The notes under the pieces were generated by a model. That model saw only the letters and a program-made list of their open reading frames with translations. It made no database searches and was not told the origin of the DNA. A stretch of 56,617 nt of DNA, counting the filler, from Dugesia japonica (lineage: Eukaryota): NCBI GenBank assembly GCA_001938525.1. It is 5 parts of 5 records of this genome, joined end to end, with 100 filler letters (N's around TTAATTAATTAA, not from the genome) between each part and the next. Parts side by side here need not be neighbours in the genome. Positions count along the whole stretch, not along the records: positions 1 to 12,357 come from MQRL01632032.1; positions 12,458 to 20,883 come from MQRL01525792.1; positions 20,984 to 36,239 come from MQRL01618923.1; positions 36,340 to 48,109 come from MQRL01641550.1; positions 48,210 to 56,617 come from MQRL01604077.1. One strand, given 5' to 3'. Below are positions 6,228-51,583 of this stretch, one piece after another; position 1 is the stretch's first letter, and the number at the start of each line of letters is the position of its first letter. The translations under genes and the position numbers were made by a program.

Positions 6228-6400
6228 AACCCAAATCCAAAGGCCTATGGGCGCGCACCTCCCATTAAGCGAGAGGTCAACCATCATAAGCGAATACCTA
6301 ACCTAGGGGCGTTAGGTTAAATTCTTTGAAAGGTTCCCTGAGGGCTATTTTTCCCCAGTCACGTTTTCTTCACTCAACTCAGGTGGAAACCCAACACCTC
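6228..6400 (-). ncRNA. Candidate structured RNA motif, copy A
   Basis: Minus strand: gcttatg a tg GTTGAC ctctc gcttaat gggagG TGCGCGC ccataggcc TTTGGATTTGGGTTC. Stems acctctc/gggaggt and gcttatg/cataggc; outer stem gaacctttcaaag/ctttggatttgggttc. Confidence 0.55.
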
Positions 6401-6727
6401 TATGTTTTTTGGAGCTGTATAGGTAATCAGAAGCGATAATCCAGAAAATTTAATTGTAAACATCTACCCATAATAATGTAGCAATTATGTCTACACCAGC
6501 TACTATTGCAATGATTAAATATTTACATCATGTATTCGACAATCAAATAATTTACCTATAAGACATTATTATTTGCCAANTTTTTTTTCTCAACATCATT
6601 TTCATTAATCTTTGGAAAGTTACAGGTGTTCCGCATAATCTAGTAAACTTAAATTATCTATATTCTGTTTTGAATTCGGTTTTTTTTCTTTTCATGATAT
6701 AGGTACTTGATAATAACCATTGAAAAG

Positions 6728-6905
6728 TGTGATATATTTAAATTATGATAATATTTAAATCTATTTAAATTCAAATTATTGAATATTTAAAATTAAATAT
6801 TCAAAATATTAAAATGAATTTGATTTGTTGTAATATTGCTATTTTATGAAATATAATTTTAAATTGTTAAATATCTTATTATTTAATATCTACATTTATA
6901 TAACA
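6728..6905 (+). repeat. 5' LTR of Gypsy element
   Basis: Starts TGTGATATATTTAAA, ends TAACA, followed by TGGCGTC (PBS-like); matches 11806-11939. Confidence 0.9.
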
Positions 6906-7147
6906 TGGCGTCAAATGAACAGAAACATTATCTGCAGAAATTTATGTTTAAAGAATAGGAAGCTAAATTGTTCAAGTTCCGAAAGGACAATGAAAGCTCA
7001 GTCATCGAGAACATCTAAAAAATGTCATGGAAATTTTAGTTTATTCGATGCTTGTAGNNNNNNNNNNNNNNNNNNNNNNNNNNNNNNNNNNNNNNNNNNN
7101 NNNNNNNNNNNNNNNNNNNNNNNNNNNNNNNNNNNNNNNNNNNNNNN

Positions 7148-7900
7148 TACGAAGGTAGATATCGATTACTTGGAAAAACATCTTATCAATTTACTGGATG
7201 TTAAACCATCAAAAATTAACCAAGCTATGCAATACTTAAATAATTGCAGTATTGAGGAGAAAAATAACGGATTTTGCTAAGCGTATTCATATGGAGAGCA
7301 GAGTTTTATCTGACAAGAAATAGGAAATCATGGTAAAAGCATTTATTAATGTCTTGGGAAATAGAAAATTGGCAAATGCACTTAAAATATTCGAATCAAA
7401 ATGATTGGAAAAGATTGTAGAAATTATGAAAGATGAAAAATTTACAGATGATTACAAAACGAATGAAAATGTTTTATGTAATATGTGCCAAGAGAATGAA
7501 ACTATAAAGAATTTGAAAATTGAAATAGAAAAGCTAAAGAATGAAATTGCTGAACAAAGAGACACAATTACAAATTTCGTGCACCAAATGTGTTTAATAT
7601 AAATAGGAATAATAATGCACAAAGTTCTGAAAAAACCCAAAAATGTATAACTGTGGGTAGATAAGAAACAAGAACATACTTTACATGTGATAAAAAAAGG
7701 CCATCTAGCTAGAGACTGCAATATCAAAAAATGGTTCATGTATGGGGGTGACCATCTTAAAAGAAACTGCAAACAAAAAAGCAATCTAAGATACTATTAT
7801 GATGAAGAAGAGCAAACAAAATCCGTATCAACGATAAACCAAAAGAAGAAGAAGATTACAGCGCTCAAGAGAATACGATAAGTGAAAATAAACCATTTTG
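7148..7900 (+). pseudogene. gag: Gypsy gag remnant
   Basis: Coiled-coil segment followed by degenerate zinc knuckles TCDKKGHLARDC and (C)FM(C)GGDHLKRNC. Confidence 0.8.
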
Positions 7901-8033
7901 GAACATTCAAAAATCTACTGAACTAATTAAAACGTTTAAACCGTCACTTGAAGATGGTTATGTCAATTTTATCGAATGAAATGGAGCACGGCCAAGACAA
8001 ACACTTAAAAAATATGAACCAACACTAATATCA

Positions 8034-11000
8034 GTGTCAAGCATAGATAAAGCAAGAAATAAACCAATTCTTGAATGTCAGGTTGCAAGGATACCAGTAA
8101 AAACTATGTTTGACACGGGCGCTGATTTGAATGTTATAAGCCAGGTATTAGCCGAGTGTATCTGTAAAAAGAACCATGTTGTAAGAATTTTTAAATCTAT
8201 TACAAAAGTAACATGCGCAAATGGTACAACAGAAGAATGTTTGGAGAAGATATTATTAAATATGGCAATTGAACCTGTAATGACAGCACACGTGTTTGAT
8301 ATTATGCCAAATATATTTCCACATATATATTGGATTAAGAAGCATGAAGAAATACGAAATAATTGTGGATGCAGCAAATGATGAAGTAATAATACAGAAT
8401 GTTAAGATTCCATTTATTTCTAAAACAGTTCTAGCTGAATCAATAAAAAACTAACACCGACCGTGTTAATGAGTTGTAATACGGGATTCAGAAAAACAGA
8501 GACTCNTGAGATTTATAATGATAAACAATGCTATAGAATTGCGGTATCTGAATGCGTAGATGCAAGTAGAATTGGTGAATATTTTATCATAGGCATGATA
8601 ATGGACCACTCAGATCAGAAAATTACTTATGACATGAGTAAAGAATGAATTTTCACTGAGATAAAGAGAAAATGACCGTGCGGAAACTTTTAGTAACTGA
8701 TGGAATTACATTCGATAATAATGGATACATGTGAGTAAGAAAATATATGTTAGAAGGTGGATGTAAAGCTTTACACATCGAAACTACACTCGGATATGAT
8801 GAAGAGCTTAATCAAAATGAAGAAGTGTTTGAAAACGTATCACTTAGACAATTGTCCTCTGAAAAACAAAGAAGAGAGGAAGAAATTACGAACAATATAC
8901 TTCAGAAAATTAAAAATGATATGGAAGTTGTAAACAATTACTACGATGGGGTCAAAACATTAGCCACGCTTGAAAGGAATAAAGATGTATTTAGTCGATA
9001 TAAGATGGATGTGGGTAAAACTGATATTATTGAACATAAAGTAGAAACAACCAATAGCAGACCAATTGCTTTCAAGCCACGAAATATACCAAAAGAACTC
9101 GAAGAAGAAGTAGAACATATGGTAAACAATTTGAAAGATGCTGGTGTTGTAAAGCTGAGTACTTCTCCATGGAACTTGCCAATTGTAGTGGTGAAAAAGA
9201 AAAACGGTGATAAACGTATGTGTGTTGACTACAGTGTACAGAATGTTAAAACAAACCGACCAATATTTTCAATACCATCATCAGAGGAAATATTTGACAG
9301 TATTGCTGCAGCTAAGTAGTTTTCAATTCTAGACCATTCGAGTGGATATCACTAAGTGCCGATAGCTAAAAAAGATCAGGAAAAAACAACATTCAGCACA
9401 AATTTGAATTATACGAATTTACCAGAATGCCGTTTGGATTATGCTCAGCATCAGCGNNNNNNNNNNNNNNNNNNNNNNNNNNNNNNNNNNNNNNNNNNNN
9501 NNNNNNNNNNNNNNNNNNNNNNNNNGATGTTTTAATATTCGGTAAAACTGTAGAAGAGCATAATGAAAGACTAGATCAAATATTAAAAAGAATAAGAGAA
9601 GCTGGACTTAAATTAGCACCAATTAAATGTAAATTTTTACAGGAAAAATATACAATATCTCGGACATATAATAACTAAAAATTGAATCGCAACAGATCCT
9701 GATAAGATAATGGCAATCCTAAAATGAGAGATTCCTCAATTTCGAAAAGAACTTCAAACAGTTTTAAGGTTTTGTAATTATTATAGGCGATTCATAAAGA
9801 ATTATGCAAATTTATCAGAACCTCTCAGTTCGATGCTAAAGAAAATAAATGAAATAATGAAAATAAAGAATATTTTTACAAGCTACGTAAAAGATTGACA
9901 GAACCANNNNNNNNNNNNNNNNNNNNNNNNNNNNNNNNNNNNNNNNNNNNNNNNNNNNNNNNNNNNNNNNNNNNNNNNNNNNNNNNNNNNNNNNNNNNNN
10001 NNNNNNNNNNNNNNNNNNNNNNNNNNNNNNNNNNNNNNNNNNNNNNNNNTCAGAAACAGTACTGCATCACAAAAAAGACTTTCTGCCAATAGATGCGTTT
10101 GTCATCAAGTTTAAGCACTATTTAATGGGATCACAATTTGTGGTACGAGAAGGTCATCAAGCTTAATTGAAATAGCCCAAATACGCCACAATACTGCATT
10201 TGGAAAGCTGAACTGGAGATTTTTAGATATGATCGTATAATTTAGAAAAGATCGTGAACATTCACGATTATTAGATTGCGAGCAGTGTTTAATAAAACCC
10301 GAAGATCCAAAAAGGAAAAGAAACGTTAAAATATACAAAACAACAGACAAAGATGAAGAACAAAGTATACGCTNNNNNNNNNNNNNNNNNNNNNNNNNNN
10401 NNNNNNNNNNNNNNNNNNNNNNNNNNNNNNNNNNNNNNNNNNNNNNNNNNNNGGCTCTAGAAAGAAACGAGATAACACTTCGTGACGTAGAGGTAAATAA
10501 GGAAATACAATTGTATTGGGATAAAAAGAAAGAACTGCGAATATGAGGTGAGATGCTATATTTAGAAACGGATGAGAAATATCTTCTTATTGTGCCCAGA
10601 AATAAAAGAGAAGATGTCATTTGAAAATATCATAAGTTATTTGGTCATCCAGGAATAGAAAAACAACAGGAGTTATCAAAAATGAGTATTATTGGCCGTG
10701 TATGGATAAAAACATAAGAGAACAACTATCAAAATGTAAAAATTTTAATGCGCATAAATATATTAACGAAAAATTAAAGCACCATTACAGAATATATCCG
10801 AAAAAGAACCATTTCAAAGTATTGCAACAGATATTACAGGACAATTTAAACCAAGGCAATATGGTTATAAATATATTCTTGGAGTTGTAAATTATTTTTC
10901 GAAGTTTATATGTTAAATTCCATTACGAACAATAACAACTGAAGATATATGTGAAGCTCTTTGGATACATTGGATATCCAATTTCTGAATACCTAGTCGA

Positions 11001-11640
11001 ATTCACTTAAATTGTGGTAGTAATTTTAATTCAGGTGCATTTCAGAAATATTGCAAGCAATTGGGAATCGTGAAAACATTTTCATCTCCATATTACCTTC
11101 AAGAAAACGGATTAGTAGACAGATTATTTAGAATGGCAAAACCTATGATTAGAGCAGTACTAGAAGACAGGAGAATTCAAGATTAGAGTACTGTGGTACC
11201 AATAATAGAATATTGATTACGAACAGCAACACAAAAAACGACTAAGTACACTCCGTATGAAATAGTATTTGGGAGGAAACCTAGAATCGTTATGTGGAAT
11301 GCTGGAAGGAGGGAAACGAACATCACAAAGAATTCTGATCAATATGTAGAACAATTAAAAAGAAATATTATGAATATTCATAGCCATGTAAGAAAAAAGA
11401 TTGAAAAACCTAATGAAGTAACATCAGCTAAATAGGACAAATATCGTTGGAGAGATGAAATTAAAATTGATGATAAAGTTCCGATAAAAAACAATGCACA
11501 TAATGGTTTTAAAAGGCAATATATTGGACCATTTAAAGTAATAAAGAAAATGAAGGAATGGACTTACACTTTGCTTGATGAAAATAGAAACATTTTAATT
11601 CAACGAAATACAACCAAATCAAAAGAATACTAATAAATGA
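8034..11640 (+). pseudogene. pol: Gypsy pol remnant (protease-RT-RNase H-integrase)
   Basis: FDTGADLNVI; SPWNLPIVVVKKKNGDKRMCVDY; MPFGL; DVLIFGKT; GHPGIEK; SPYYLQENGLVDR; GPF; many stops and frameshifts. Confidence 0.95.
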
Positions 11641-11805
11641 AATTTCCTTCAAGTCCTGGAGCACACAAACATCAGTAAGTAGCAAACAGAAAACAAACTT
11701 ATCAGTACAACCTGACCGACGAAATGAGAGCGATATCAGAAGACATTACAAAGAGAGAATGATAAGGAAACTGAATCCTCAATATTGATAAAGCAAAGGG
11801 AGGAA

Positions 11806-11939
11806 TGTGATATATTTAAATTATGATAATATTTAAATATATCTAAATTCAAATTATTGATTATTTAAAATTAAATATTCAAAATATTAAAATGAATTTG
11901 ATTTTATGAAATATAATTTTAACTTGTTAAATATCTTAT
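11806..11939 (+). repeat. 3' LTR of Gypsy element (internal deletion, 3'-truncated)
   Basis: Preceded by PPT AAAGGGAGGAA; near-identical to the 5' LTR but lacks a ~17-bp internal stretch and the terminal ..TAACA. Confidence 0.9.
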
Positions 11940-12277: not shown

Positions 12278-12357
12278 AATTCAAAGTAAATCGGTACGCG
12301 CCTGCACTCCTTGGAGGAGTCACCGACGATGCCGAATGAACAGGTCATAAGACGACC
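12278..12357 (-). ncRNA. Candidate structured RNA motif, copy B (5' part lost in gap)
   Basis: Minus strand: ggtcgt ctt atgacc .. tcggcatcgtc GGTGAC tcct cca aggaG TGCAGGC gcgtaccga TTTACTTTGAATT. Stems actcct/aggagt and tcgg..cgtc/ggcg..ccga. Confidence 0.55.
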
Positions 12358-12401
12358 NNNNNNNNNNNNNNNNNNNNNNNNNNNNNNNNNNNNNNNNNNN
12401 N

Positions 12402-12413
12402 TTAATTAATTAA
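12402..12413. other. Artificial assembly spacer TTAATTAATTAA centred in a 100-bp N gap (also 20928-20939, 36284-36295, 48154-48165)
   Basis: Identical 12-mer with stops in all six frames, in the middle of four equal-length N runs. Confidence 0.95.
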
Positions 12414-12899
12414 NNNNNNNNNNNNNNNNNNNNNNNNNNNNNNNNNNNNNNNNNNNNGTGATGAAAATATACGCTTAGTAGATGTGCTGAATCGTGTGCA
12501 AGATCATGTGACGAGAAGATTTTGCAAGGCATTATTTCATAAATGACCGCGTTCAAATAACGTAAAGGATGATGTTTAATTGGTTCGTCTGTTTCTTTAA
12601 TTAACGGCAAAATAATTATTTGAAATTCAAAAAAATTATCAACACGATTTGGCGTCATCCCATACTTTTTAATTGGCGTAAAATCGAAATTCACTTGTAT
12701 AGTTAAATAAGAATTTGTATAAAGATGATTGGTGCAAAATGATAACCTCGTAACAAAGTTTTTTAAGCATTTCTCAACAACCATGTAGCATCACTATTCG
12801 CCCATATAGAACTTCAAATGGAGATCTCTTAATAGCGCTTTGATAAGTTGCATTAATAGCAAATTCAATCTAATAATTTTAATAACTGTATTTTTGTTA

Positions 12900-16734: not shown

Positions 16735-19264
16735 TATATGTGTGTGTTTTATAAAATATACCAAATGAATATAAATAAAAATAAACATATAAAAACTAAA
16801 TTCTATTCCAAAAATTAAAAGTAAATTATTTTTATAATAAACGCTCATTTTTCGATAAATATTCAAAATATTTTCTTTTGGTAAATATTTAAACTTTCGA
16901 TATTTTCTGATTCAGTTTCTAGTAATTTTTTCGACTAATTTTAAACTTACAAATGTTGTTGTTTTCTAGAAATAGCCTCTAAAGTTTTATTTGATTTTTT
17001 ATTTAAAATTTTAATTTGTGTGTACAATGATGCTGCTTTATTATTTATTATACATAATCAAAATTATTACGATAATAAAATCAAAAATTACATGTATAGC
17101 GAGGTTTGTGTATTAGCAATTCGTCTAATAGCAATAATTGCTTTATAGCTAGGCTTTGCCATTAACCAACAATAAATTCATTAAAATCCTACAAACGAAT
17201 GGCCAAATAGTATATTGCTTAATAGTAATATTTGTTTAATAGCAAGTCCGTTTACATCACTAACGAAAAATTTATTTTATTTTGATGATCGGGAGCATGA
17301 AATTATATAATTAAAAATTTGATTAATTAAAAGTATTGTTTGTTTCAATAAAGATAAGTTAAGTTAATGTAGAATAAATAATTACTAAAAATAGTAATAA
17401 ATTAAATATTAATAAATAATCATTAAAATAATTTATTAAAATAAAAAAAATTTTCTTAAGTTTTTTTTTGAATTGTTTTAAGTAATTGTAAGTTTGCTCA
17501 AATAGTAACGTGGTATAGTTTAAATGAATATATAAGTAAACGCAAGATTGAACATCTTGCACAGATTTAATAATTTTTAAAGGTAAAAGAATTATTGATT
17601 TTTACTGGCACAAATTTAATAATTTTTTAAGATCATTTGTTCAGTTCCAAATTTATTTTGGAAATTAAATCGCAAATCGAAATTTGCAATTATTAATTGG
17701 AAAATTTACTACGGGAATTATTATTTGTTACAATAAGTAATTTTTTTAAAGAATTTTAAATTTAAAAATTGAGTTAGTAAAACTGGGATGGTACTATATT
17801 TTAATAATCATAATTGATAATTTATTAGCCCGTAAAGGACTAGTTTTTATTTTTTCAAGTGTTAATTAAATTCAAAGTTTTAGTTGAAAAAATTATTGTA
17901 AGTTTGTTATAAACTAGCGTAATATTTTTATAATACAATTTTGTCGATATTATTTTTAATAGTAAGTTACTGATAAGAATAAAAAGTTATTAATAATTAC
18001 ACTGAAGGATACTGTTGAACAACATTTTTAGCAGGTATCCTATATTTCCTAAAATCAATTTTAAAATTAACGAGACCCATAAATCTCATTTCTTGTTTCC
18101 ATTGCACAAAGGCGTTGTGTTGCAATTTGTTACTGCCTCCGTGAGTATATTCTTTATGTCAATAGATATTACTGAGTTCGTTAATAAATTATATAGGAAA
18201 GAGTTGCTCGGAAAGGGGTTTCCCTAAAGTTTTACCTACACGCCTATAAATTAATTTTGAGTCAAATAATTATTTGTTAGGTACCTGAGCCTACTAGGAT
18301 CTAACACAAGGATTAGCAAAATTTAAGTTTTTAACTTAGATTCCTCGAGATTATAACCTTTAAAATAAAATATATAAATGTTTTAAATGTATTTTATATA
18401 TTATAATTCTGGAATTTGTAATGTCTTACTTTTGACAATAGCTTAAATTTTGTTTTAATAAATTATTGTATTTATATTTGCTTACAGAATTTGAATTCTC
18501 CATAATTTGGCTACATTTTTATTAATAAAAGATTATTTTATTGCTGTGTTTGTTTTGGTTTGATATTATTAAATTATATATTCGAAGATAACGATTTTGA
18601 TATAATTCTATTTAAATAGCTGTTATTTCAGAATTTATTGTTTACGTATAAATTAATAGGGACATAACATAAAAAGATGGTCTACGGAATATCCCTTTAA
18701 TGTATATAAAACCCCTTTTTTAACTTGATTTAACAAACTACTCAACAGAAAATATTTCCGGTTCAATATACATTTAGAATATATTTAATATATCTATCTT
18801 TATTTCTGTAGTATTGNTAGATGTTGCGTTACACTTGATTATTTAAATTCTTCAAATTTGTATTGTGGTAATGGTCAGAATTGGAGCAGATATAGTGTTA
18901 TCTAATAAACCATTATTATTATTACTAATATTTATATTTTAATTTATATTTTAAAAATTTATTATTTTTAGAACAGATCATTTATTTATAAATGTTTAGT
19001 TATTTTAATCACATTTAAATATTTTAAGTTATCATTTTTGTATTTTATTTACTCCAAAATGTTTCCAAATTTTAAAAGTACATATGAAATTTAATTTCCT
19101 GATATAAAACCAACTGAAAACTTATTATAAATTTTATTATATTTCATGGCATAGCGGTTAAGGAAATTTTTTTTATAAATTATAACTAATTAAATCAAAC
19201 AAGGACTGTTTTAATATATAAAATAAATAATTCTGATATGAGTTTTTTTTAAATCACATTTTTC

Positions 19265-19877
19265 ATGACTTCTATCAATTTTATTGACGAAGAAGAATGT
19301 CCTAAGCATTCTGATTCACTCAATATTCCTGATTTTAGGGAGTAAGAATTTTTTAATCTTTAAATATAACTTGAAAATATTTTTAAAGTATCTATCATGG
19401 CTGTATGTCCAGAGAAGTTTCAGTTAAAACTTTAAAAGCTAGTGGTGAAAATAATTGTTATCTAGTTCGAAAACGAATTAATGCTGACGAAGATGAACAT
19501 TGTGTTGAATATATATTGTCATTTCTTAATGATGATGAAGATTATCATTTTAAGTATGTTTTATTTTTAAAAATAAATCAACTTTTAAGATGTATTTTTT
19601 TAGAATTAAAAAAGATAATAAGTATTTTATATTTGCTAATCGGTATTTCCCTAGTTTCAAATGCGTTATTTCGCATTACATGTTATCCAATATAATTAAT
19701 GATGCTCATTTAGAGTTTGGTGTTGTAAATGTAATTATTTGTTATTTTTTTAGTTATTCATAAATTAATATATTTCATAGAAAACTATAACAGCTATTCG
19801 GGAATCTTTACGAGGATTTTCATGTTATTTAGTTGATAATATTTCCAATGAAAGAATTATAGAATTACTTCATAAAT
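19265..19877 (+). CDS. Host gene exons encoding an SH2 domain (RASA1/p120GAP-like SH2)
   Basis: Exons 19265-19341, 19389-19553, 19604-19730 and 19781-~19877 with 47-50-nt GT-AG introns splice in phase to IYHGCMSRE..CYLVRKR..YILSFL..YHFKIKKDNKYFIFANRYFPSFKCVISHYM..HLEFGV. Confidence 0.85.
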
Positions 19878-21233
19878 GTAAATATAAATATTTCTATAAG
19901 TTAATTACATAAATAATTTTATAAATAAATATTCTAATAAATATTATAATCTATTCTTATCATCATGTTGATTTTCAATACCATTTTTATTTATAGAATG
20001 ATAAACACCTTTAAAATACAAGTAAAAACGGATCATTTTTGATTGAAAATTCAAAAATATAATTTCGTTGTATAATATTGTAAAATTAAATATTTTGTAT
20101 AGAATAATTTAACTTACACATAAAATTTACTTTTAATTGATTCTATATTGTATCCTTAAGTATACCTGAAATCCATGAAATTAATTTATAGTCTGAAAAC
20201 TTATTCTTTATTAAATAAATTAATTATGATATCCATAAAAATATTGATTTTTTAAATTTAAATTTTTATTGATTTTATTTTAAATTAAAATAAATCAATT
20301 TATATATTTATTTATCTATGAAATTATTATCTACGAATTTTTTAATTTATTTTTTGGATTAAAAAACATTTATCAAATAAACAAGCTTTATCATTAGATT
20401 TCCTAATAGAAATCTAAATTTAGAATAAAATAAATATTTCTAAAACAAATGAAAGACAAATAAAGAAGAATTCAAATCATTTTATGATGGAATTTTTTTG
20501 CGATTGTAATTATGTTTTAGTGAAAATAATCTGGTTGTTTTATTACGTATTCTTATTTGGATAATTGGTTCCAAAACGTGCGCTGTCGAAAATTTCCAAT
20601 AATACTCATTTTCTATGAAAGCAGCAATTCCAAAGGACGAATAAAAATCTATTGAATTATGTTCGCAATCAATAAATTAAACATTTTCGTAATAATAGAC
20701 GAATATTTTGANNNNNNNNNNNNNNNTGATTTTATTACTACTTCAAAACAATACTTTCTGTTCTAGATTATCTCTAGTTTTTTTGTTTCTCAATTTATCT
20801 GACTCGGTCAAATGTTGTAAACTTTGAATTAACGAATAAATTGTTTCAATAAATTAAAAAGCTTAGATCAAAATGTTTTTTTTNNNNNNNNNNNNNNNNN
20901 NNNNNNNNNNNNNNNNNNNNNNNNNNNTTAATTAATTAANNNNNNNNNNNNNNNNNNNNNNNNNNNNNNNNNNNNNNNNNNNNGCTTCCATTTCCTAAAA
21001 TTAAATTCATTAATTCTTCAGAATAAGGTATTACTTTTTTATTATTTTCAAAGTATTTCTTTCCATCTTTTTCAAATAGTATTATTGTAGGACCTTTACC
21101 AGGATAAATTATTGTTTGAAATTCTTTATTATGAAATTCATATTCATAAATATCTTGTAATTTAATTTTAAGTTTCATTGATTCAGATAAAATTGAATTT
21201 AAAGAAGTGTTTCTAAAGAATGGTTTTCTTTTC

Positions 21234-21830
21234 TCAAAAAGATTTTTTTACACTTTCAATTGCTTTAATAGTAGGAAGTTGTTGAGTAGTTAAAGTATCT
21301 TGTAAAGTTTTCGATTCAATTACTCCTGTAGTAAATAAATTAACATAATTTTCTTGAGTTTTAATTAATTCTTTCAAAAGTTTTATTCTTTCTGTTATTT
21401 GTTCACTATCCATTTTATTAAAATTTTTAAATGAATTATCAGGAGAATTATCATAAGGTTTTAAATATAAACCATCACCTTTTATTTTAACTTGCACTCC
21501 TTTCTTAGCGTTTTTAGTAATAATCTTTAATTGTGGATTAGGCAAATTATTCTTAAAATATTTATGAATTGCACTTCCTTGATAAGGTTTTAAGTAAAGT
21601 CCACTTCCTTCTTTCTTTGAAGCAATATCTTTATCTAATAATTCAATTTCTTTTTGTTTTTTTATTTTCCCAGAGCTTGTGCTTGAGCAGATCTTGAATT
21701 ACTAACTGTACTAGCAATTACACTCGAAATTCCAGCTGTAGAAGCTAAACCAGCTATAATTGGTGGTATTGCAGCTAGAAAAGCAAATTCTCCACTTTTG
21801 TTTGACCTTCGAGATCTTTGTGTTCTTTAC
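21234..21830 (-). pseudogene. Polinton small virion/membrane-active-type protein with repeated G(S/D)GLYLKPY motif
   Basis: GEFAFLAAIPPIIAGLASTAGISSVIASTV..., then EGSGLYLKPY and KGDGLYLKPY; frameshifted. Confidence 0.55.
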
Positions 21831-22137
21831 TCATTTTCTTTTTTAGTTCCTCTTTAAGCTTTTTCAATCCAATAGTTTTACTATTAATTTTTACAGATTT
21901 AGATTTATTTGAATTTACTAAATCAATTAAATCTTATTCTGAAGAATAAGTTGATTTAAAAGTGATTTAATAATAAGTTAACTTCTTAAATTATTTTTAA
22001 ATCACTTTTAATCCCATCCTCTCAATTTAAAGTTGAATAAAAAGAGATTTAAGAGGTGGGAGGATTAAAAAAGAGGTGAGGTGATTTTTTAAAATTGAAA
22101 CATGTTTCAATATTCAAATCCCTGAGGGCGCCATAAA

Positions 22138-22896: not shown

Positions 22897-22929
22897 TTTA
22901 ATTTAGTAAAATTTATAAATCTGTTTTCT

Positions 22930-34620: not shown

Positions 34621-34634
34621 AAGGCCTCATTTTC

Positions 34635-38929: not shown

Positions 38930-41200
38930 GCGGGCAAACAAATATAAACAATGTACTAAATTATGAAAAAATTCTAAAAGAAATAGAGAAGTTAAGAAGT
39001 AGTCTATTTAAGTAGTCTATTAAATTATTGGACTTAGTGGTAGCCAAAAAACTTTGTTGATATGAAAATTATTCAAATCAAATTTATTCAAGTCCAAATT
39101 TAAAAATATATACTGGAATTGGGGTGTGTGTGAAGAACATGGACTTACTAAATTTGAATTTTGTAATATGATAATGAAAATTATTAATGGTTTTGATAAA
39201 AAATTGGAGAAAAACATTGAGACCAAGTGATCTTATTGTTGTTTGCAATTTGTATCAGAAGGGAAATCAATAAAGTGACTTCATTAATTTATTCATCAAG
39301 ATTTCGAAGCATTGTAAAGTGACTGTGATATTTAATACTCAAAATCTATTTCATCCTGGAAGCAGTCATAGAACCCGCAATTTAAATGTACAATACATGT
39401 TTCTATTTAAAAATCCCGGAGATCAAACTGTTGTTGATTTTCTAGCAAGACAAGCATACCCAAATAATAAACTATTTCTTATTGAATCATTTCAATATGC
39501 AACAGAAAAACCACATAAAGATTTATTTCTCAACTTTACACAACAATGTCCAGATGACTATAGAATTAGAACAGATATATCCAGTCCAAACGGTATCACA
39601 GTATATAAACAAAATAGGTAATTTTCCTAATATTACAAAAATGACAAATTTAAAGAAATTTGTAGTCGATCCAGTAACTGATAGGGTTTTTAAACGTCTA
39701 AAAATATTGTTTGAGAAGAAAAAGTATAGAAAAAGAGGAAACAATCTCATAAGAAACATCATGTAAAAAAGTGACAGTAGATAAATAAAAGGAAGCAATT
39801 GAACATGATTAAAACACTTGTAAAAAGGTATGAAAAGAAACTAATGGAAAATAGATATCATTATAAACAAATCAAATGCATGTATTATTTTAATGAATTA
39901 AAATGAAATTACAAAGAAGTATTCAGTTTTTTATCGCCTTGATTATATCATCAAAATCGTTGAGAATGAGAATTTTGCAATCATTTACACCTTATATTAG
40001 GGATGATTTATTTGAGATTACTATTGTGTTATAGAGATTATTGTGTTTGAGATTATTATTGTGTTATAGTAGCAATACTAACAATTGCATTAGACTTCAC
40101 TTAAATAAGCAATGGGTAGATTACAATCATTACCTAATTTTGACCTGGAATTTTCATCGAATTATTGTAATAGGGACCCTGATGACCATATGGATGGCTT
40201 CAAAATGCCCAGCTCGTTTTTGAGGCGTAGAAAAATTGATGAAAGCATCTGAAAAAACGAAAGTAAAAACGAAAAAATAGTTATCAGACCAACTAGAGTA
40301 CAGGCTGAACAAGTAAATGTTGAGAAAATTTTCAACAAGAGCATATAAAGCATATAGTATTGATGATTTATAGCAAATGGATTTAATGGAGAGGATTTCA
40401 TATTCAAAAGTTAATAAAGGGTAGAAATATACGTTAACATATATTAACATGGCAATAATTAGATATAAAATGAACTTATAACGAAGTATTACGTGTTTTG
40501 AAGCATTAATCAAATCGGCACGCATTACGATAATCTTTTTCAGTCTATGTTACTCACGATTTAGTTGAAATTATCAAAAATAATGTTTATGTTAATATAA
40601 TTATTAGCAAGTGTGAAAATGATACCTTGAAAAGACATAAAATGGTATTTATTATCGCTGGTAAATAAAAATAATAGAAAATTATGGAGAGAAGTTATGA
40701 AAAAATAAGAGGAATGTCTTATAGCAGCATTACTTCCAATTTTTACAAATTACTTCCAAAACAGATCTGAATTTTACCACACCAAGGCCAGAAATCTTAT
40801 AAAACAAATAAAGATCAACTATTATTCTGTATTCTCACAGTAAAAGGCAGCACGTGTAGAGAGATTTAATCGTACATATGCTTTGAAAAAGTACTTTGTG
40901 CATACTGGTAATAAGATTTGGATACATGTGTTGCCAAACCTTATTCAGAGTTATAATTATTCAAGTCATAAAGGATTAAATGTAGCAAGACCCATTGATG
41001 TAGGCTCAAACAATCAATTAAAGTTATAGTTGTTACGGCAACAACCAAAAAAATAAAGAAACTAAAATATAAAGTTGGTGATAATGTTAGAATATCAAAG
41101 ATATCAGTTTCACCATTCATCAAAACTTTTAATAGTAATTGAGGTGTTTCAAATATCGAAAACCAATACCAAACAAAATTCAATCATGCATTCATTCAAT
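38930..41200 (+). mobile_element. Polinton/Maverick remnant 2 (ATPase and integrase fragments)
   Basis: IIGLSGSQKT; TQNLF..RTRNLNVQYMFLFKNP..LARQAYP..RIRTDI. Integrase N-terminus GVEKL..RKF..IDDL*QMDL at ~40220-40400; C-terminus VERFNRT..KYKVGDNVRISK at ~40850-41110. Confidence 0.85.
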
Positions 41201-41489: not shown

Positions 41490-41611
41490 CCGGTTGACAA
41501 GTGATTTGCGTATCACTCAATATTTGATTGAGTGTCTTATTCCTAGAATTTTGGGAGATTGTCGGTGACTCTAAATCCAGATTGCATGCAGGCCTCCATT
41601 TGGTTTGAGTT
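41490..41611 (+). ncRNA. Candidate structured RNA motif, copy C
   Basis: TATA-like CTATATAT at ~41477; hairpin agtgat/atcact; gagtg tct tattc; tgggagattgtc GGTGAC tct aaatcc agat TGCATGC aggcctcca TTTGGTTTGAGTT; actcaa/ttgagt outer pairing. Confidence 0.55.
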
Positions 41612-42686
41612 TCTTAGATCCTCGTTTGTGATTGGTATGCAAAGCAAAGTCTATTATATGTATTTACGTTTTATTTTAATGGTGGAGAGTTAACCTTATC
41701 AATATTGCTAAATAAATGTATAGTGATATTATTTAAGCAAGCAAAATTTCATTAAAGAAGTTAGATTCATAAACCACTTAACTATGAATTACCTAAGTAT
41801 CTATATTAAAGCCATATAGGCTAAATTACTAAATTTAAGTATGAAATAAGATCATATTGTTTGATGAAAGTCTATTTATTTATACAGTTGAGTTAAAGGT
41901 AATTATTAAATTTGATTAGCCTAAAATTTCAGCTTAACTAAATCACTAAACGTTATTTTATAATATTGTGAACTAGGATACTAAAACTATATTAACATGT
42001 TATAAACTAAAATCCTAAAATTATATGAAGAAAATCAAACATTGTTTCATAAACTAAAATTTATTATTATTGACATTAACATCCATCATATATTACATTC
42101 ACCTAATAAATAACAATCAAACAAGCCCTTACGAATTTGCATGCTCTCCAGTCATACGTTAAGCGTATCTCCTTAAAATAGTCGAGCTCGTCCAGCAATC
42201 ATGTAAACACATCGGTAACACAAGTATATCGGCATCATTTTCATTATCCCAAATATCATCCAGCGCTTACACATGCGGTGTGCATTGATATCAATGGTAT
42301 TTTTTCAAGGTTTAGCAGATAAAATGTTCTGATTCTACTGCAAATTTCATCTGCTTTTATACAATTCTGATAATTTTATAATACATGTACAAATTTCTTT
42401 ATGTCACATAATTTTAACATATTTACAGGAAACCTCAATACATACACACTAGATTCAATGTATTTGCATTAAAATATACATAATCTCAATACACAAATTA
42501 TAATGTGTACGGATTTCATAAAGATTTTACAAATTTACTAATATTTGAAAAACATGCAACAAATTCATGAAAATATATGTAAAATTTATTTAAACAGTAA
42601 TTTCATTAAAATATGTAACAATTATAGTGATAAATTTCTATACTTTTCATGATTTTTTATATAAAAAATTATATTAATTTCTTTAT

Positions 42687-45600
42687 AGTTAAGTTACTTT
42701 CAAAATCAGACTTCATTTAAATATTTATTATAAATNAAAATTACACAAATTCTAAATAATATTAAAACAAAGTGTTAATCATTGTAACTCTTCCTCTCTT
42801 CAAAATGCTTTCCACTTCTTTAGTCATTCTATTCTTCTGTAATTTGAACTAGGAGGAAATTTGATTTCTACTTGCCGATTTGATATGAACTTCATTATCT
42901 GATTTGGTTCTTCATATTGGAAATCATTATTTTTTCTTTTGTGTGGTTCTACACGAACTAACACCCACTTCCACACTTTGAAAATTCTCTGTCCACGCTT
43001 TTCATTTTCAAAATTTGCCATTTTATTAACTGCATCATTTAAATTTTGTCTAACTGATTCTAGATTAACTGTTTTGTTTTCAGAAATGGTTTTCACCTTT
43101 GAATGCAAATTTATCCGCCTTCCAAAATTAATCTCAAAGGGTGACAATATTGTCGACTCTTGAACAGTAGCGTTTATACGAACTTAATTCTTGGAAGTAA
43201 TGCATCCAAGTTACTCTCATTACAATTTACTTCAAGTGAAGTTGTAATCATATCTCTTATCATACGAATCATTCTTTCTACCAGCCCATTCGATTGGTGT
43301 TGGTACAGAGAGCTGAATTCTTATTTAATATTAAACTTTGCTGATTTCTCTGACATATATTTACTCTCAAACAATCTTCCTCTGTCGGTTAATATGCTTT
43401 TTGGTTTGCCAAAACGATATATCCATTTGTTCAAAATTATTCCGAAAATTGTTTCTTCATTTATCTTTGATACCGCTGATATACTTACTAGTTTGCTAAA
43501 CTGGTCGATAATCACCGCAAAATAGTTTTTTCCTGATAACAATGTTTCCATATGAGCAATATTTACCATAATTTGTTCCAAAATATCTTGACACTTTCTA
43601 GGTAACAGCAGCTCTTTCGTTCTTCCTCGATCAATTTTTCGTTTTGCACAAATCACACATTTATTCAAGTTATTTTTAATAGTCTCCATCATTGCAAGCC
43701 AGTAATAATTATTATCTAAATATGAAAATATCTTTTTTATTCTTAAATGAAATAATTCTTTATGATTATTTCGTTGGTTATACTCGTACTATTATTAAAT
43801 GGTACTATTATCAAATTTTTATTTTCTCTTTCTGCGACTAATAATCCATCATCCANNNNNNNNNNNNNNNNNNNNNNNNNNNNNNNNNNNNNNNNNNNNN
43901 NNNNNNNNNNNNNNNNNNNNNNGTTTTGCATTATTTGAATTCTTCTATGTATTATTGGATTATCGTTCTGTGCATTCCGAATTTTTTCTATGATTTCTTT
44001 TCTATTGTATGTTATTAATATATTTTATTCTTGATTTTTCTTTCTTGGCATCCAAATGTACTGTTTGGCATTGTGAGCATAAACTCTCTTTTATTCGCTA
44101 TAATCTATCAGCATTGTTGTGTTCTTCCCCTTTCGATATTTTAACTCAAAATAATATTCTCCTAGATTTGCCTTCCACGTCTGAAATATTAAGCTTATCA
44201 ATCGTTGTGTGTTATTCATAAATATCAGTGCTTTGTGATCTATTTTTGCTAAGAATCTTTTTTCATATAGATATTGCTTGAAATGTATCACATATTCATG
44301 TAATGCTAGCAATTCTTTTCTTGTAACGCAGTAGTCATTTTCATGAGCAGTGAGGTGCCTGGATTTATATGCTATCACCATTTCTACACTATCTTCTGTT
44401 CTTTGGCTCAACACTGCACCAATAGCATCGAAATTTGCCTCAGTATCTAATATACATTCTATTTTCTCTTGGATAATCTAAAAATGGTGCATTACATAAC
44501 TTGTCTTTAGGGTTTTCACAACTTTTCTGCATGCTTCTGTCCACATCAAGGTTTTGTCACATCATAAAATAGCTTCATATAAATGTGTTGCAATTCTGGC
44601 GTAATCCTTGATAAAAAGTCTGTAGTAATTCGTTAAGCCAAGAAAAGACCTGAGTTTAGATGAACATTATAGTTCTTCGGCATTTTCTATTTCCTGAATA
44701 TTCGTTTTGTTTTGTTTTTATTCCTTCTGCACTTATTGTGTGTCCCAAAAGACAAGTTGTTTTCGGTAAAATTTATATTTTTTTGGATTTTATCTCAATC
44801 TTGATTCTCTTATTCTGTTAAAAACTTCTTTTAAATTTCATTATGATCTTCAACCGTCCTTCAATACACTTATATATCATATGGATATACGATGACACCT
44901 TTAAAAATTACCCCGTCAACATATCATNNNNNNNNNNNNNAAACGTTTCCGGTGACGTTGCTAACCAAAATGGAATCTGATTGTACCTAAATTGACCCTT
45001 TTTTGTAATAAAAGCCGTAACATCTCTCGAGCTTTCTGATAGTACTACCTAATAGTAAGCTTGTTCTCTATCAATTGAAGAATATATTCTTGCACCTGCT
45101 AAGCAATCCAACAATTACTGGATGTCTGGCATCGAAAATGAAACTTTTTCAGTGATCATGTTCAGATGTCGATAATCAACACATATTCTTATCGAACCAT
45201 CTTTTCTTCCAACAATTACTAAAGGTAAATTCCACGGACTTTTACATTTGCTAATTACCCCAATACTTACTAAATTCTGTATTATTTCGTCAATCTTCTT
45301 TTCTAAGTGCATTGGTTGTCTCCGGGGATGTTGAACAATTGGATCTCGAAATACTTTTATTTAATGTATTACTTGTTTTGTATGTCCTATATCAAACTTA
45401 GACGCCGTGAATATTTCACCAAACTTCGAAATTAGATCATTTAGATCTTTATTATTTGTAAATTATTGTAATTCTGTCTATTATCGTTTGAATGGTTTAT
45501 TCCCGTAAACTCAGTTTCAATGTTATTAACTTCTATCAGTTTAATTCCGAAACTTTTCATTGCATTTATCCCACCAATAAGTTGTGGTCGTATATTTTTA

Positions 45601-47923
45601 ACTATTATGATTTTAATAACTCTCACTTTATTATCCCATTTAACGCTCAGTTCTACACATCCTAATAACCTCTCTCCACTGCTCGAAAATATCCAATTTA
45701 ATATGACGTTGCAACATAAAAAGGATGGTTTTCCTACTTTCAACCAGTACTCTTCGCTCATAACTGTAATCAATGCTAACCGAATCCCACAACATTTCCA
45801 ATTTTACTCAATTTACGTTTACTTTGCTCCAATCTCTTCCGTCTTTAGTTTCATACATCTCTCTTCTGTCTTCATTATTTCGATTCGGGTTATCTCTTCT
45901 TAAACTATCTCCACTGACGAAATGTATGCAACAGAGTTGTTTTGGTTTTTTCATGCATTTCAAAGCTTTCTTTTTCGTCAGTTTGCATCTCTTATTCCTC
46001 TTAGATCCATAGAATTTTAATATTTTTGCCATTAGATTGACCTTGCACAATATAGCATTGACGGAAATTGTGTCCAACTTTCCAGCATATTAAATATTAG
46101 GGGTATGCATAAATTCACATCGCTGTGTATATGTTGAATTTAAGTAATATTAATAATAATATATCATCTAAAAATTTGTAATTTGTTTAAGTAAGTCAAT
46201 ATTAATTATATTAATAGCATAAATTTGATAATTAAATTAAGTTTACCAAATTATTTGCAGAAATTATAATGGAAATAGATAAAATGCATATACACCAGTG
46301 CATTTTGTTTCTGTTTAATCAGAGAAAAACATCAGTTGAAGCCACTCGGATCATTTGCAATACAAATTTTGATGAAGCAGTAGCCAAGAGCTCATGTCGT
46401 CAATAGTTTCGACGCTTCAAAAGCCGTGATTTTAATTTGAACGATAAAAAACGCACTGAGTGGTCACATGAGATGAGTTTGGATAACTTGGAAGCACATT
46501 TGAAAGAGGACTCTACTCCATCGAGTGTAGAATTGGCAGGACGGTTACATATAAGCCAGAGCACCATAATTCGATTGTTACATCAGTTTGGAAGGATCCA
46601 GAAAAAAGGAAAATGGGTTCCACATGATTTATCCGAGAACAACATTACCAGTCGACTCACCACTAGTCTTTTTTTCTCTCAATAGACACAAACAAAAGTC
46701 TTTTTGCATCAAATGGTGACCGGAGACGAAAAGTGGATATATTATTCTAATCCCAATCGCAAAANNNNNNNNNNNNNNNNNNNNNNNNNNNNNNNNNNNN
46801 NNNNNNNNNNNNNNATTCATGACCACAAAGCTCTTCTTTGTATCTGGTCTTTTGTATCTTTATATTTTAATGGACATTAATAACGCATATGTCCATGCTC
46901 TTCACAACAATAACATTGTCCTTCTTGTATTCTTTCTTCTTGTGTTTCAAATAATCCTCTACATCTGTTAAAATGACATCTTGCAATGATTCATTGAAAC
47001 TGTCGAATTTCTACTTAAACTATGTCTTCTGCTCTCTGTAATCACCGATTATGACATCTTCTCGTTGTATTTTCTCTAATACGTTGACATTTCTGTTCTT
47101 GGTTTTTCATATTTTACATTATTATTGGTTTTAAAATTAATTGACGGTTGGTTTTGAGGCCGTCTCTCATGACTACGTCGGTCTCCTTTTACACATTCTT
47201 ACACATTTTCTCTGTATTGCGTAAATAACTTCATTTCCAGCAACGCGTTGGAAATGTTCTTTATCTTTATATATTTTTGACAGAGATCTCATCTCGGCAA
47301 CTTTAGTTTTTGGTCTTGTTGTAAGTGACTCTCACAAATTTTGATTCCTGACTTNCTTTGNCAGGAAATCATTTACAATTTCGTCANTACTTAACCCTGA
47401 ATTCAATACACAGTTAACTAAATTTCTTACTCGTATCTTGAACGTTGCAAATATTTCTTCTGATTCTTGTTTAACTGTTGCAAGCTCTATTATCATTTCT
47501 GTGATAGATTTCGTTATTGTAAAAGTGTCTATATACCACTTTTTTGCATCTTCTTTCGTAATTCTGCCTCACTTAAAATTTTCCCATAAAACTGCGGCTT
47601 CTTCTGATAACAAGAGATCAAAAATTACCATCAAGCTTAAACCATTCACAATAAGCCATTTGCCGATTTCTTTCAGCCATGCTGTAGCTTCTGAAGCATC
47701 TTTACAATCATATTTTCTATATTAAAATTGATAAGCTCGTGAGTCTTCTTAAGCAAGGCTTCTAATATTAATTTTTGTTGTTGGCGTGTAAATACATTAA
47801 CATTTTCGGAGTGGTCGCCAGTTAAATTACTTTCAAAATCAGACTTCATTTAAATATNNNNNNNNNNNNNNNNNNNNNNNNNNNNNNNNNNNNNNNNNNN
47901 NNNNNNNNNNNNNNNNNNNNNNT
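42687..47923 (-). mobile_element. Degenerate Ty3/Gypsy LTR retrotransposon with ~103-bp AGT..ACT LTRs
   Basis: 3' LTR 42687-42789 next to a PPT; 5' LTR from 47820 (partly in gap) overlapping PBS TGGCGACCAC by 1 nt. Gag knuckles, protease region, SPWNLPLV..RICVDYR, RNase H VIAYKSR..TRKELLA, integrase FGKPKSILTDRG. Confidence 0.9.
46097..46850 (+). mobile_element. 5' part of a mariner element nested in Gypsy gag
   Basis: TA|TTAGGGG start; HTH region, GKWVPHDL, VTGDEKWI; truncated at ALLCIW. Confidence 0.85.
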
Positions 47924-47939
47924 CTATTATATTTATTTT

Positions 47940-48109
47940 AAAACCCAATGTAATTTTATACCATAAACCAGTACAGTTTCACATAGGAAATTAATGCAGT
48001 TTCACACAGGAAACCAACACAGTTTCATACAAGAAGCTTATATAGTTTCATACTAGAATCATCATTGTATCATACAGGAAATCAATGCAATTTCACACAA
48101 AAACCATAA
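47940..48109. repeat. Degenerate ~23-bp minisatellite (ACAGGAAACCAATGCAGTTTCAC-like)
   Basis: About 7 divergent tandem units running into an N gap. Confidence 0.75.
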
Positions 48110-48539
48110 NNNNNNNNNNNNNNNNNNNNNNNNNNNNNNNNNNNNNNNNNNNNTTAATTAATTAANNNNNNNNNNNNNNNNNNNNNNNNNNNNNNNNNNN
48201 NNNNNNNNNTTTAAAGGTTACCAATCCATGTTTTGATCTTTGCGCCTTCTACTATTAGTTAATTTTATTTTTTTTCTTTCTACAGCTTTTAGCTGGCCAA
48301 ACTAAGATTGAAAACCTTGGGGAGGATTTTCTGGCTTTAAAGACAGCCTTTGTTAATGTTGGCGCACTTTGCGTTTTGAACTTCAAAAAGAATGAATTTC
48401 AAAGAAGAATTAATTGTAATTGAAATAAAGTATTGAATTAAAANNNTTGTTTTAGTTGATTTAAATGAAGAAAAGAAATAAAACTAACAAACATCATTGA
48501 TAATCATTAAATTAAACTGAAAATATTATGCCAATAATT

Positions 48540-51090
48540 TATTAAAAAATTAAATAAAGTAGAAGTTTAAAATATTTTGAAGGTTTAACTAAATTAAGTC
48601 AAGGTTGTATTTATTAATATTAGGCTACGATAACAATGTACTAATATTAAACAAAAGACTTTATTATGATGTCAATCTTTTGTTTTGTCTTCTGTGTTTA
48701 TCACTTTTCCAAAAAAGAAACTCAGATTCAAGATCAATGTTCTGTCCACTTGTTAAATAAAACTTTATCCTCATCTACATGTCCAAATGATCTAATTCCA
48801 GTCTGTTGAGGGATTTCGTCTTGATATTGTTCATTAAATTGTATCCTCGTTCTGCATCAGCACTGGAGGCTTGAAATGTGCCACAGATATCATGCAATAT
48901 TGCTAGGTTTGAAAACTTATCATCCGCCAATTCATAGCTAACTACATCTGAGAATGTTTTTAATGTCCCAGATTTTAACTTTTCATTTAGTATAAATTTA
49001 AACTCGTTATATTTCTTGATCAATATATTCCTTGTATCACCTTGTATCAGAAAATGATTGTATTTGGCACATAATTTCAGCAGCTCTTAATTTTCAAATT
49101 GAAAGTCTGTTTGTACTTGAATTGGTTGGGTATCGAATGCAACCCATTCTTCTACTTCTCCTTCAGGAAAACTCTCATATAAATAGATGCAAACTCGAGG
49201 AATAAGTCTAAGAATTCCAGCTCTATCAACATCAATAAATTGATCATTTGAAAGTAATTCTACCACTTCCTCACTCCAATTTACTTTTTGTGCTATGTAC
49301 TGAAGTTGCAGTTTAGTAATATTTTCCTTTGCAAACTGAATTGCTTCAAGTGTAGTTATGCAGCTGCGTTGGAAAACACAACATAACTCAGCCAGTTCAG
49401 CTAGAACATTATTCAAACATTTTTATCAAACAGTATTTTGCAATAGAAACTTTATCCTCATCAACTTGTTTTTTAAAATAGTCAATTAACATCATATAAT
49501 TTCTCGATAAGGCTTTTACAGCAAAATATCTAGACATCCACCACACCTCATTAAGTGGTCGAAATGAGATGACATCATAGTCTGCAACATTGTATAATTC
49601 TTCAAATTCAGGTTTGTTAACACTTGACCTACTGAAAGTAGTGTAAACAATTTTTAATAATAATTCAATATCTTTCATCATAGTTAAATTCTTCCATGCA
49701 TCATCAATGCCCAGATCTTCATTATGTGCGACACAGTGCTGCACTGTCAAATGTGTCAACTCTGACGAAAAAGAACATCAACACCATTACGCTTACCTAA
49801 CATTATTGATGCACCATCTGACGTAAACATCACCATTTTCTGAACATCAAGTTGATTGTCTGCATAAAACTTCTTGATTGCTTCACAANTAGTTTTACTG
49901 TCACATGCTGTCAATTTAACAACACTAGCAAAGTATGCTTGATGACACTTTACTGTAGTTGGTCGATACTTGATATAGATAATGAAGATTTTAGTGACTG
50001 ATATGTCTGCACTCTCTTCCACAATCAATGATTGAAATTGGAAATTACGAATTTCTCTCACGATGGCTTCTTTAACAACAGAATCAATACACTCGACAAA
50101 TTTGAAAGCGTAATTTTTACTCCGCCAACTCTCTGTAATTTTAACATACTTTGCCAAATGATTATGAATGTCTTGCACANACAACATAGATGAATTCATT
50201 GAAATTGACAGAATAACATTGTCTATCAAAATCTTTACTTGCTCACTTATGCTTCTGTGACGTTCGTTTAATTCTATTCTTGTCTGCTGACCACTGATTG
50301 TTTCGATAAGCAAAGTGTTGATTCCACCACGAGACTTCATTCTTCTCAATTTAGCCACCGATTCAAAGTGTACTTTTTGAACAAGACGTGTTTTTAAATA
50401 ATCCATTTTCCAAAGATCGCAGATCTTTCCAACCGCAAACTCACAAGAAGACTTGGCTTCCTCGCACATCTTGCAAACAACTCCTTTAACTTCACTGGAC
50501 GTAAAAATAGTTCCAAGATTAACACATGTAGGTGTTTTTTAATCTACAGTTTCAGTTTTGACGAGTTTAAAACTAATAGCAGATCTTGTCCTTGGCTCCA
50601 TCAAATCATGTTGTTGTGTTCGTTTTACCATTTATAATTTATAAATATGGAAAGTGATTTCAAAAAATTATAAAAATCTATTTGTTGTAAAATAATTTTA
50701 TTTGTCTTAACTTATCCCTGTAACATGCAAATAAGCATTGAGAGGATTCTTGCAGTCTGGCTTGATTGATATAATTATATTCTGAGTCATAAGACAAAAC
50801 AAAAGATTGACATCATTATAAAGTCTTTTGCTTTCTTTTAGTAAATTTTTGTCGTAGCCTAATATTATTAAATACAATCTTGACTTATTTAAGTTAAANT
50901 TTCAAAATATTTTAGACTACTACTTTATTTAATTTTTTATTAAAAATCATTTCAAGTTTTGTTATAGTCTGCTACTACTACCACTTAAAAGTCTATCTGT
51001 AGAAATTTTAAATTATCTTGGTAAAAGCCCTTTTTGGGGGGCGTAGACCGCGTGACTCCTGACCCCCATCCACTTTGACATACCCTGCCT
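48540..51090 (-). mobile_element. hAT transposon (ZNF862/C17orf113-like transposase), decayed
   Basis: LIVEESADIS; FTSDGASIMLG; HCVAH; EVWWMS; TFQASSADAERGY..IKTK..NRL; ~150-bp inverted repeats flank the ORF. Confidence 0.9.
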
Positions 51091-51459
51091 GAGAATATAA
51101 TTTCCGTAAAAAAATTTGCTCCGTAAGTTTTGCAGTCTGCTCAGTAGTCTTTGTTCTGCGCTCATTAATCTACATACCTTAGAGGGAACATTGGATATGG
51201 AGTGATAATTTTCGAGCCAATTCATACACGATACTAACATTTGTATAATCAATATTATTATTATTATNNNNNNNNNNNNNNNNNNNNNNNNNNNNNNNNN
51301 NNNNNNNNNNNNNNNNNATTATTATTATTATTATTATTATTATTAAACTATTAAAAATTTGAAATAAAGTCTAAACACCACAAATCATCGTAAATAATGT
51401 GAAATTATTTTTGTAGATGAGAAGGTGGTTAAAAATACCGCTCAATTTAATTGATATCA

Positions 51460-51583
51460 TAGGGTAAGATTACCTAGTAAAACCCGGCAAAAATTCATTT
51501 AAGCGTCCATAATCTAGGTCTTTGGAATAGAGCTGGTGACTCGCAACACGTAGTGCATGCTCGTATTCTTTTGGTTCGGGCTT
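51460..51583 (+). ncRNA. Candidate structured RNA motif, copy D
   Basis: ggaatagagc t GGTGAC tcg caaca cgtaG TGCATGC tcgtattct TTTGGTTCGGGCT. Stem gaatagagc/gctc(g)tattc; outer stem aaacccgg..caaaa/ttttg..tcgggctt. Confidence 0.55.

Follow-up and report, generated by a model that had tools for sequence, protein, structure and literature searches.

A covarying RNA motif with an invariant core in Dugesia japonica, found at the end of one probable giant long terminal repeat

Four divergent copies of a short motif lie in a 56,617-nt stretch of DNA from Dugesia japonica (assembly GCA_001938525.1; referred to here as the window), and they raise the question of whether their predicted RNA fold is real, what kind of element carries it and what it might do there. 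The window is composed of five contigs joined by artificial spacers (N44, six-frame stop linker, N44, at 12358–12457, 20884–20983, 36240–36339 and 48110–48209), whose two sides are not genomic neighbours; the four copies, A to D, are spread over three of these contigs. The covarying core structure is real and well beyond chance, and copy A lies in a 4,872-bp unit that is likely to be the giant solo long terminal repeat (LTR) of a highly repeated retrotransposon family, in which the motif ranks among the best-conserved stretches. As the four divergent copies keep one shape and copy A lies inside the end of this likely giant LTR, the motif is likely to be an RNA signal needed for copying of the element. 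The copies are as follows.

6222–6345, minus strand: copy A, a three-way junction comprising an outer helix (6324–6336 with 6227–6242), a hairpin (6297–6316) and a long core hairpin (6243–6291).
12278–12357, minus strand: copy B, a hairpin and a long core hairpin, the 5′ part being lost at the contig end.
41488–41636, plus strand: copy C, with its core at 41549–41606 and weaker outer helices.
51452–51600, plus strand: copy D, with its core at 51520–51577 and outer helices.

All four cores were found where an initial, sequence-only reading of the window had placed them, and their 9-nt spacers match the letters it had quoted. The pattern TGAC-N10-30-TGCRNGC-N9-TTT has four matches in the window against a shuffle mean of 0.06, with at least four in 0 of 100 shuffles, a significance that is overstated because the pattern was derived from the four copies themselves. 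Common to the copies is a lower stem with a 1-nt bulge on its 3′ side and a 2-nt G-rich bulge on the 5′ side. Above the G-rich bulge are UG/CR and AC/NU pairs separated by a bulged G, followed by a variable apical hairpin. The invariant core is composed of UGAC paired with GU-G-CA, the 2-nt bulge, the bulged G and the 1-nt 3′-side bulge; invariant letters are located in and around the bulges and the stems drift, with an outer-stem identity between copies of 0.29–0.43. There is no fifth copy in the window, the next covariance-model match scoring 13.2 bits.

Covariation was assessed on a 4-row alignment (A2) with 16 named helix pairs, giving 64 cells, and on 500 shuffles. Of these cells 56 are paired, and two-sided changes are observed in 8 of the 16 pairs, with not one of the covariation measures reached by any shuffle (0 of 500). 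One alignment pair passes through all four Watson–Crick forms (G-C, C-G, U-A and A-U) across the four copies. When partners are shifted by 1–3 columns, only 31–53% of cells remain paired. The two-sided changes bear out the earlier proposal that each spacer pairs with its own upstream segment, as does the ranking of the true upstream/spacer assignment as best of the 24 permutations, at −36.3 kcal/mol against −29.4 kcal/mol for the runner-up.

Among the weaker parts of the evidence are the per-copy shuffle tests of pairing, significant for A (p 0.011) and D (p 0.001) and not significant for B (p 0.18) and C (p 0.15), and the whole-copy folding z-scores, which are modest (−1.8, −2.0, +0.3 and −0.1 for A, B, C and D). 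The periphery is also less uniform than the sequence-only reading had it. The far-upstream helix described for the three complete copies is partner-specific in A, but in C and D it pairs no better with its own partner than with that of A; the hairpin with a pyrimidine-rich loop before the core is solid in A and B, but weak in C and D. TATA-like words upstream are uninformative, as 2581 of 4368 random 150-nt stretches drawn from the window contain one, and a location near a transcript 5′ end, for which they had been taken as a sign, is unsupported since such words are background.

The setting of the fold is clearest for copy A, which is enclosed by the following features.

1521–1524, plus strand: left 4-bp target-site duplication, CCTC.
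1525–6396, no strand assigned: probable giant solo LTR with TG...CA ends, 4,872 bp, holding copy A.
5330–6166, plus strand (opposite the fold): orphan coding gene, probably spliced and now broken, within the 4,872-bp unit.
6162–6167, plus strand: AATAAA poly(A) signal of the orphan gene, ~60 nt before the start of the motif on the other strand.
6397–6400, plus strand: right 4-bp target-site duplication, CCTC.

On the plus strand, CCTC is followed by TGTTGGG from 1525, and CCCAACA extends to 6396 and is followed by CCTC. The unit thus has terminal inverted repeats of 7 bp and is flanked by a target duplication of 4 bp, a match also found in 15 of 2000 shuffles of the left 6 kb, and copy A lies ~50–175 nt inside the right end. 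Owing to the lack of an internal direct repeat between the ends, and of any integrase or reverse transcriptase (RT) match within 1525–6396 in a Pfam domain search, the unit is best read as a giant solo LTR. Its length of 4,872 bp includes a likely assembly duplication of ~260 nt plus a gap at 3140–3611, where 3140–3350 recurs at 97% in 3401–3611 on the far side of an N gap, a tandem duplicate that probably arose in assembly. Ginger-type DNA transposons are marked by TG ends, a 4-bp duplication and long terminal inverted repeats; such an element was rejected on a perfect inverted repeat of only 7 bp and on the missing integrase match. DIRS/Ngaro elements were set aside on the TG...CA ends and the lack of a recombinase match, and P-like or Helitron ends, prompted by a five-letter word common to A and D, were dropped on the TG...CA ends and the duplication.

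Public contigs were aligned to 4450–7050, and their summed depth is not a copy number. In run X1 the depth is 200–5,100 over most of 4450–6189 and 17,000–27,000 over the motif (6190–6363), against 8–36 over the flank at 6451–6711; the same profile is observed in run X8 (organism B, a second organism label), with 508–610 on the motif and 0–2 in the flank. The right boundary is sharp, with depth falling from ~12,500 to ~23 at the computed 6396–6398, a check that covers the right end only. This profile is taken to show only that the family of the unit recurs very often and that conservation is higher at the motif than in the sequence on either side. A single diverged contig, with 37 differences in 227 letters, covers 6164–6388 and links the motif to adjacent sequence including the 3′ end of the gene.

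The orphan gene has candidate introns at 5224–5288 and 5623–5768 with GT–AG ends, the second of which keeps the frame, and in this copy it is interrupted by an in-frame premature stop at 5861. Its AATAAA at 6162 lies about 210–230 nt from the CA end of the unit. No usable homologue of this LTR-borne gene was found in Pfam, a homologue search, the Atlas or viral contigs, and a comparison with a 1.84-billion representative set returned one unrelated low-complexity match only. A 60-nt coding block (5494–5580, plus strand) has the highest internal depth in run X1, 35,900 with a peak of about 90,000, which indicates that the protein family is very abundant in the genome, though without a homologue in the searches run. 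Decayed fragments resembling open reading frames (ORFs) occupy 2730–4450 (minus strand) within the unit, and the two coding regions seem to diverge from about 4500–4780; just outside the unit, at 317–1018 (plus strand), is a broken orphan ORF with no Pfam or homologue match.

Copies B, C and D may also lie in LTR ends. Scanning C and D for TG...CA ends with a target duplication yielded chance-level candidates only. Downstream of each is a run of decayed fragments on the opposite strand, which weakly supports a layout like that of A.

42106–42266, minus strand: decayed ORF-like fragments opposite copy C, ending ~500 nt past C; presumed link to C, no Pfam match.
51749–51975, minus strand: decayed low-complexity ORF-like fragments opposite copy D; presumed link to D, no Pfam match.

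The LTRs of two small Gypsy elements in the window (6728–6905/11806–11939 and about 42688–42785/47821–47857+) were rejected as a site of the motif, as neither has a model match.

Which strand folds bears on the position of the motif within the LTR. Most cells (49 of 64) are Watson–Crick and hence strand-neutral, and of the other cells 7 are G-U on the reported strand against 3 A-C cells, which would be G-U on the other strand; at one alignment column U-G is present in three of the four copies. In A, C and D the reported strand gives the better fold, and folding is much weaker under DNA parameters. As retrotransposition would be expected to strip short introns from a gene read in the direction of the copied RNA, the intron-like stretches favour an antisense gene and a sense fold. 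Raw RNA runs contributed 3 aligned reads (X12) and 163 (X13), with no pile-up of ends and with coverage too low to judge cleavage.

Known structured RNAs offer no credible match. The sequence-only reading had recognised no Rfam family, and this holds, a whole-window search giving one chance match elsewhere; searches of the four short stretches gave 0, 5, 1 and 1 matches, all far below gathering scores and none in common. A hammerhead core consists of CUGANGA and GAAA; CUGANGA is absent from both strands of the four copies, and a hammerhead or retrozyme, also without Rfam match, was rejected. The same holds for a ribozyme like that of hepatitis delta virus (HDV), with an L3-like word in two of the four copies, helices that are nested and not pseudoknotted, and no Rfam match, and for twister, twister sister(-like), pistol and hatchet ribozymes, with no Rfam match and words that are absent or not in all four copies. 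The selenocysteine insertion sequence (SECIS) comprises a RUGA/GA quartet with an 11–12-bp helix II on the coding strand; here the upper helix is ~3–8 bp, the motif is opposite to neighbouring ORFs and there is no Rfam match. A spliced-leader or small nuclear RNA was rejected on an Sm-like word in one of four copies only, and a TRIMp3 or a tRNA- or 5S-derived repeat on the lack of A/B box words and of any tRNA or 5S match. No tested core word of a known ribozyme is present as a fitting core in all four copies, the twister-sister-like loops having been deduced from PMC11620745.

Pattern scans of viral contigs (0, 2 and 49 stretches) and metagenome contigs (9) gave 60 stretches, all scored with model R1, the best at 17.4 bits, and prokaryote genomes gave 96 stretches, the best at 19.2 bits among the 80 of 96 scored; both were read as chance. 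These negatives are weak, because a model omitting copy A scores the true copy A at just 16.9 bits. The two best-looking metagenome matches by eye were rejected as lying inside a LINE endonuclease-like reading frame (LINE, long interspersed nuclear element): in L003 and L006, at 3001–3047 (minus strand), the pattern match falls by chance in the endonuclease-like part of a GC-rich metagenome LINE-type ORF of >1,200 aa. A phage BLAST search with copy A returned 27-nt chance matches only. No published description of the motif was found in the literature searched, most subscription journals being outside its coverage, and the folded motif with its invariant core is apparently undescribed.

Several known systems nevertheless resemble it in part. 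HBV (hepatitis B virus) epsilon, HIV (human immunodeficiency virus) TAR, CTE/RTE export elements and the domains joining U5 to the primer-binding site (PBS) are retroviral or pararetroviral cis-acting hairpins; like the motif, they are long bulged hairpins whose core sequence is fixed and which lie in a terminal repeat or close to one, but the motif has another core sequence and no Rfam match to any of them. Retrozymes are hammerheads in the LTRs of non-autonomous Ty3/gypsy-type elements and, as far as the relevant parts of PMC4918200 describe them, also combine a conserved structured RNA inside an LTR with 4-bp target duplications, solo LTRs and little other conservation between lineages; here, by contrast, there is no hammerhead core, the LTR is about 15 times longer and gene-bearing, and cleavage by the motif is conjectural. 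In the twister-sister-like LINE-1 and OR4K15 ribozymes, two stems flank a conserved internal region and the apical stem-loop is dispensable, as in the motif, but their 5- and 6-nt loops with a scissile CA are absent from both of its strands (PMC11620745, in part). The TRIMp3 elements Cassandra, Ajax and Helenus likewise hold a small-RNA-like structure within the LTR, but the motif has no 5S or tRNA match or A/B box and its LTR is not miniature (sections of PMC10886601, which covers Pol III-derived LTRs). For the unit as a whole, the section of PMC6431247 on the planarian Burro elements portrays them as giant, Gypsy-like LTR elements present in thousands of copies, with env homology as well as accessory ORFs, and puts plant Ogre LTRs at 1.9–6.5 kb. 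Burro/GYPSM1 and Ogre share with the present unit a multi-kb terminal repeat, very high repetitiveness, accessory ORFs and an A+T-rich, invertebrate-like genome (PMC6431247); the likeness to Burro/GYPSM1 is a parallel in description, and the section on it mentions no structured RNA or LTR-internal gene. Ribozymes in retroelements are reviewed in PMC6765202, and the parts consulted of PMC8532177 and PMC11410931 added nothing on LTR structure.

What, then, might the motif do? We tentatively favour, as quite possible though short of probable, a protein-docking site in the full-length RNA, serving export or packaging and probably located at the start of U3. Export and packaging hairpins occur near retroelement LTRs. 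The strand of the fold would be the LTR sense strand, and in the transcribed 3′ LTR copy the motif would open U3, directly following the polypurine tract (PPT). The opposite-strand gene would then be an antisense accessory gene, whose introns may survive because they face away from the copied RNA. Recognition of the sequence and shape of the core by a conserved protein, whether Gag, RT or a host export factor, would explain why the stems vary and the core stays fixed, and B, C and D would be ends of further families in the lineage of A that have diverged strongly from it.

A number of observations weigh against this docking site. The LTR setting has been shown for one of the four copies, the other ends of B, C and D being lost to contig ends or insertions; the earlier proposal of a selected structure tied to an LTR-type element is supported by the covariation and by the place of copy A in a unit that has TG...CA ends and a target duplication. 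None of the copies is joined to a PBS, PPT or pol gene, which leaves the superfamily of the carrier unproven. Copy A, on which the setting depends, is the most divergent of the four, and a covariance model of B, C and D ranks it as the top non-training match, yet at only 16.9 bits (E 0.05). The G-U cells show no significant strand bias (p 0.17), and for B the opposite strand gives the better fold. The AATAAA ~230 nt from the end fits U5 equally well, and 15 RNA reads of run X13 on 6297–6346, from a diverged relative, are oriented like most coding-block reads and are thus probably opposite to the fold, library strandedness being not established.

Several of these points would be accommodated if the motif were in U5, a reading that we consider possible but rather unlikely. 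The LTR sense strand would then be that of the gene, and a mirror-image fold, in the 5′ leader beside the PBS or in the first minus-strand DNA, would place the tRNA primer or aid packaging. An AATAAA (6162) that precedes the CA end by about 210 nt gives the classic R–U5 layout, the 49 Watson–Crick cells would pair whichever strand is taken, the few RNA reads seem to come from the gene strand, and U5–PBS structures are common in retroelements. Yet the conserved U-G would turn into a C-A mismatch in three of the four copies, A, C and D fold less well on the gene strand, and far less well under DNA parameters, and short sense-strand introns would tend to vanish on retrotransposition. The R/U5 placement suggested by the sequence-only reading holds only if the LTR sense strand is opposite the fold; the G-U pairs and the opposite-strand, intron-like gene lean toward the start of U3, not decisively. 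Stems that covary freely around an invariant core, an apical hairpin that varies, the three-way junction in A and a possible 2-bp pairing, judged by eye, of the pyrimidine loop with the G-rich bulge would also suit a new small self-cleaving ribozyme, cutting read-through or antisense transcripts or setting unit-length RNA in the manner of retrozyme hammerheads, and LTR-borne hammerheads with 4-bp duplications provide a precedent (PMC4918200, in part). Such a ribozyme is conceivable but improbable, as is its fuller form, an undescribed class with a UGAC/GUGCA core and a loop–bulge pseudoknot at the ends of giant gene-bearing LTRs in many diverged families. It has no Rfam ribozyme match, none of the four copies contains a hammerhead, twister, twister-sister-like or hatchet word and two of the four contain the HDV L3 word, and prokaryotic and viral pattern matches include no model-supported relatives (a weak test); a cut at the start of U3 would, moreover, sever the 3′ repeat needed by reverse transcription.

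Two further explanations would detach the motif from LTRs altogether. It could be an independent small module, resembling a short interspersed nuclear element (SINE) or common to different transposon classes, with A simply lying within an LTR: the flanks of the four copies do not align (one borderline B–C score aside) and have no protein similarity in common, and C adjoins Polinton-like remains. However, diverged relatives run from the gene 3′ end through the motif in one contig (6164–6388), A-box and B-box words and tRNA and 5S matches are lacking, and SINE copies would be alignable, not covarying, which leaves this module quite improbable. Chance resemblance or a linear DNA binding site, which the sequence-only reading had named as what might undo it, would be in keeping with there being four sequences only, a pattern fitted afterwards and modest single-copy folding z-scores, but is largely refuted by own-partner pairing and two-sided changes far above the shuffled and slid controls, and we regard it as barely credible.

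The wider window is A+T-rich (19–38% GC in 2-kb windows) and eukaryote-like, and forms a field of decayed transposons that includes two Gypsy elements, Polinton-type capsid and ATPase genes, and Tc1/mariner- and hAT-type pieces. The small Gypsy element at 6728–11939 (plus strand) has a PBS and a PPT, a 3′ LTR that stops short at 11939 and an LTR depth of 45,000–55,000. The second, at 42688–47857+ (minus strand), has short LTRs, a Tc1/mariner-type insertion near 46407–46682 and closest proteins P0001 and P0002 at 54–56% identity. Polinton/Maverick-type remains at 21234–25264 (minus strand) comprise a double jelly-roll capsid (23882–24745), an A32 ATPase (22138–22902) and a phospholipase A2-like domain (23446–23715). 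Just upstream of copy C, at 39274–41200 (plus strand), a second Polinton-like ATPase fragment and an integrase-like fragment are discernible by eye, with no Pfam match that names them. At 48538–50944 is a hAT-like element with 157-nt inverted repeats and DUF4371, and from 52280 a second hAT-like element, identified by eye, has inserted about 700 nt beyond copy D.

Between families, the LTRs of invertebrate retrotransposons are generally regarded as impossible to align, and a fold with an invariant core that is common to unalignable copies would be a marker for a whole lineage. The motif, shown at the end of one probable giant LTR, probably marks a lineage of giant-LTR elements. Owing to the many natural variants in this genome, its structure should be solvable by covariation. 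Should it prove to cleave itself, the motif would represent a new class of ribozyme from an animal genome; in any case it may offer a small, testable way into the question of how very large LTR elements have their RNA exported, packaged or primed.

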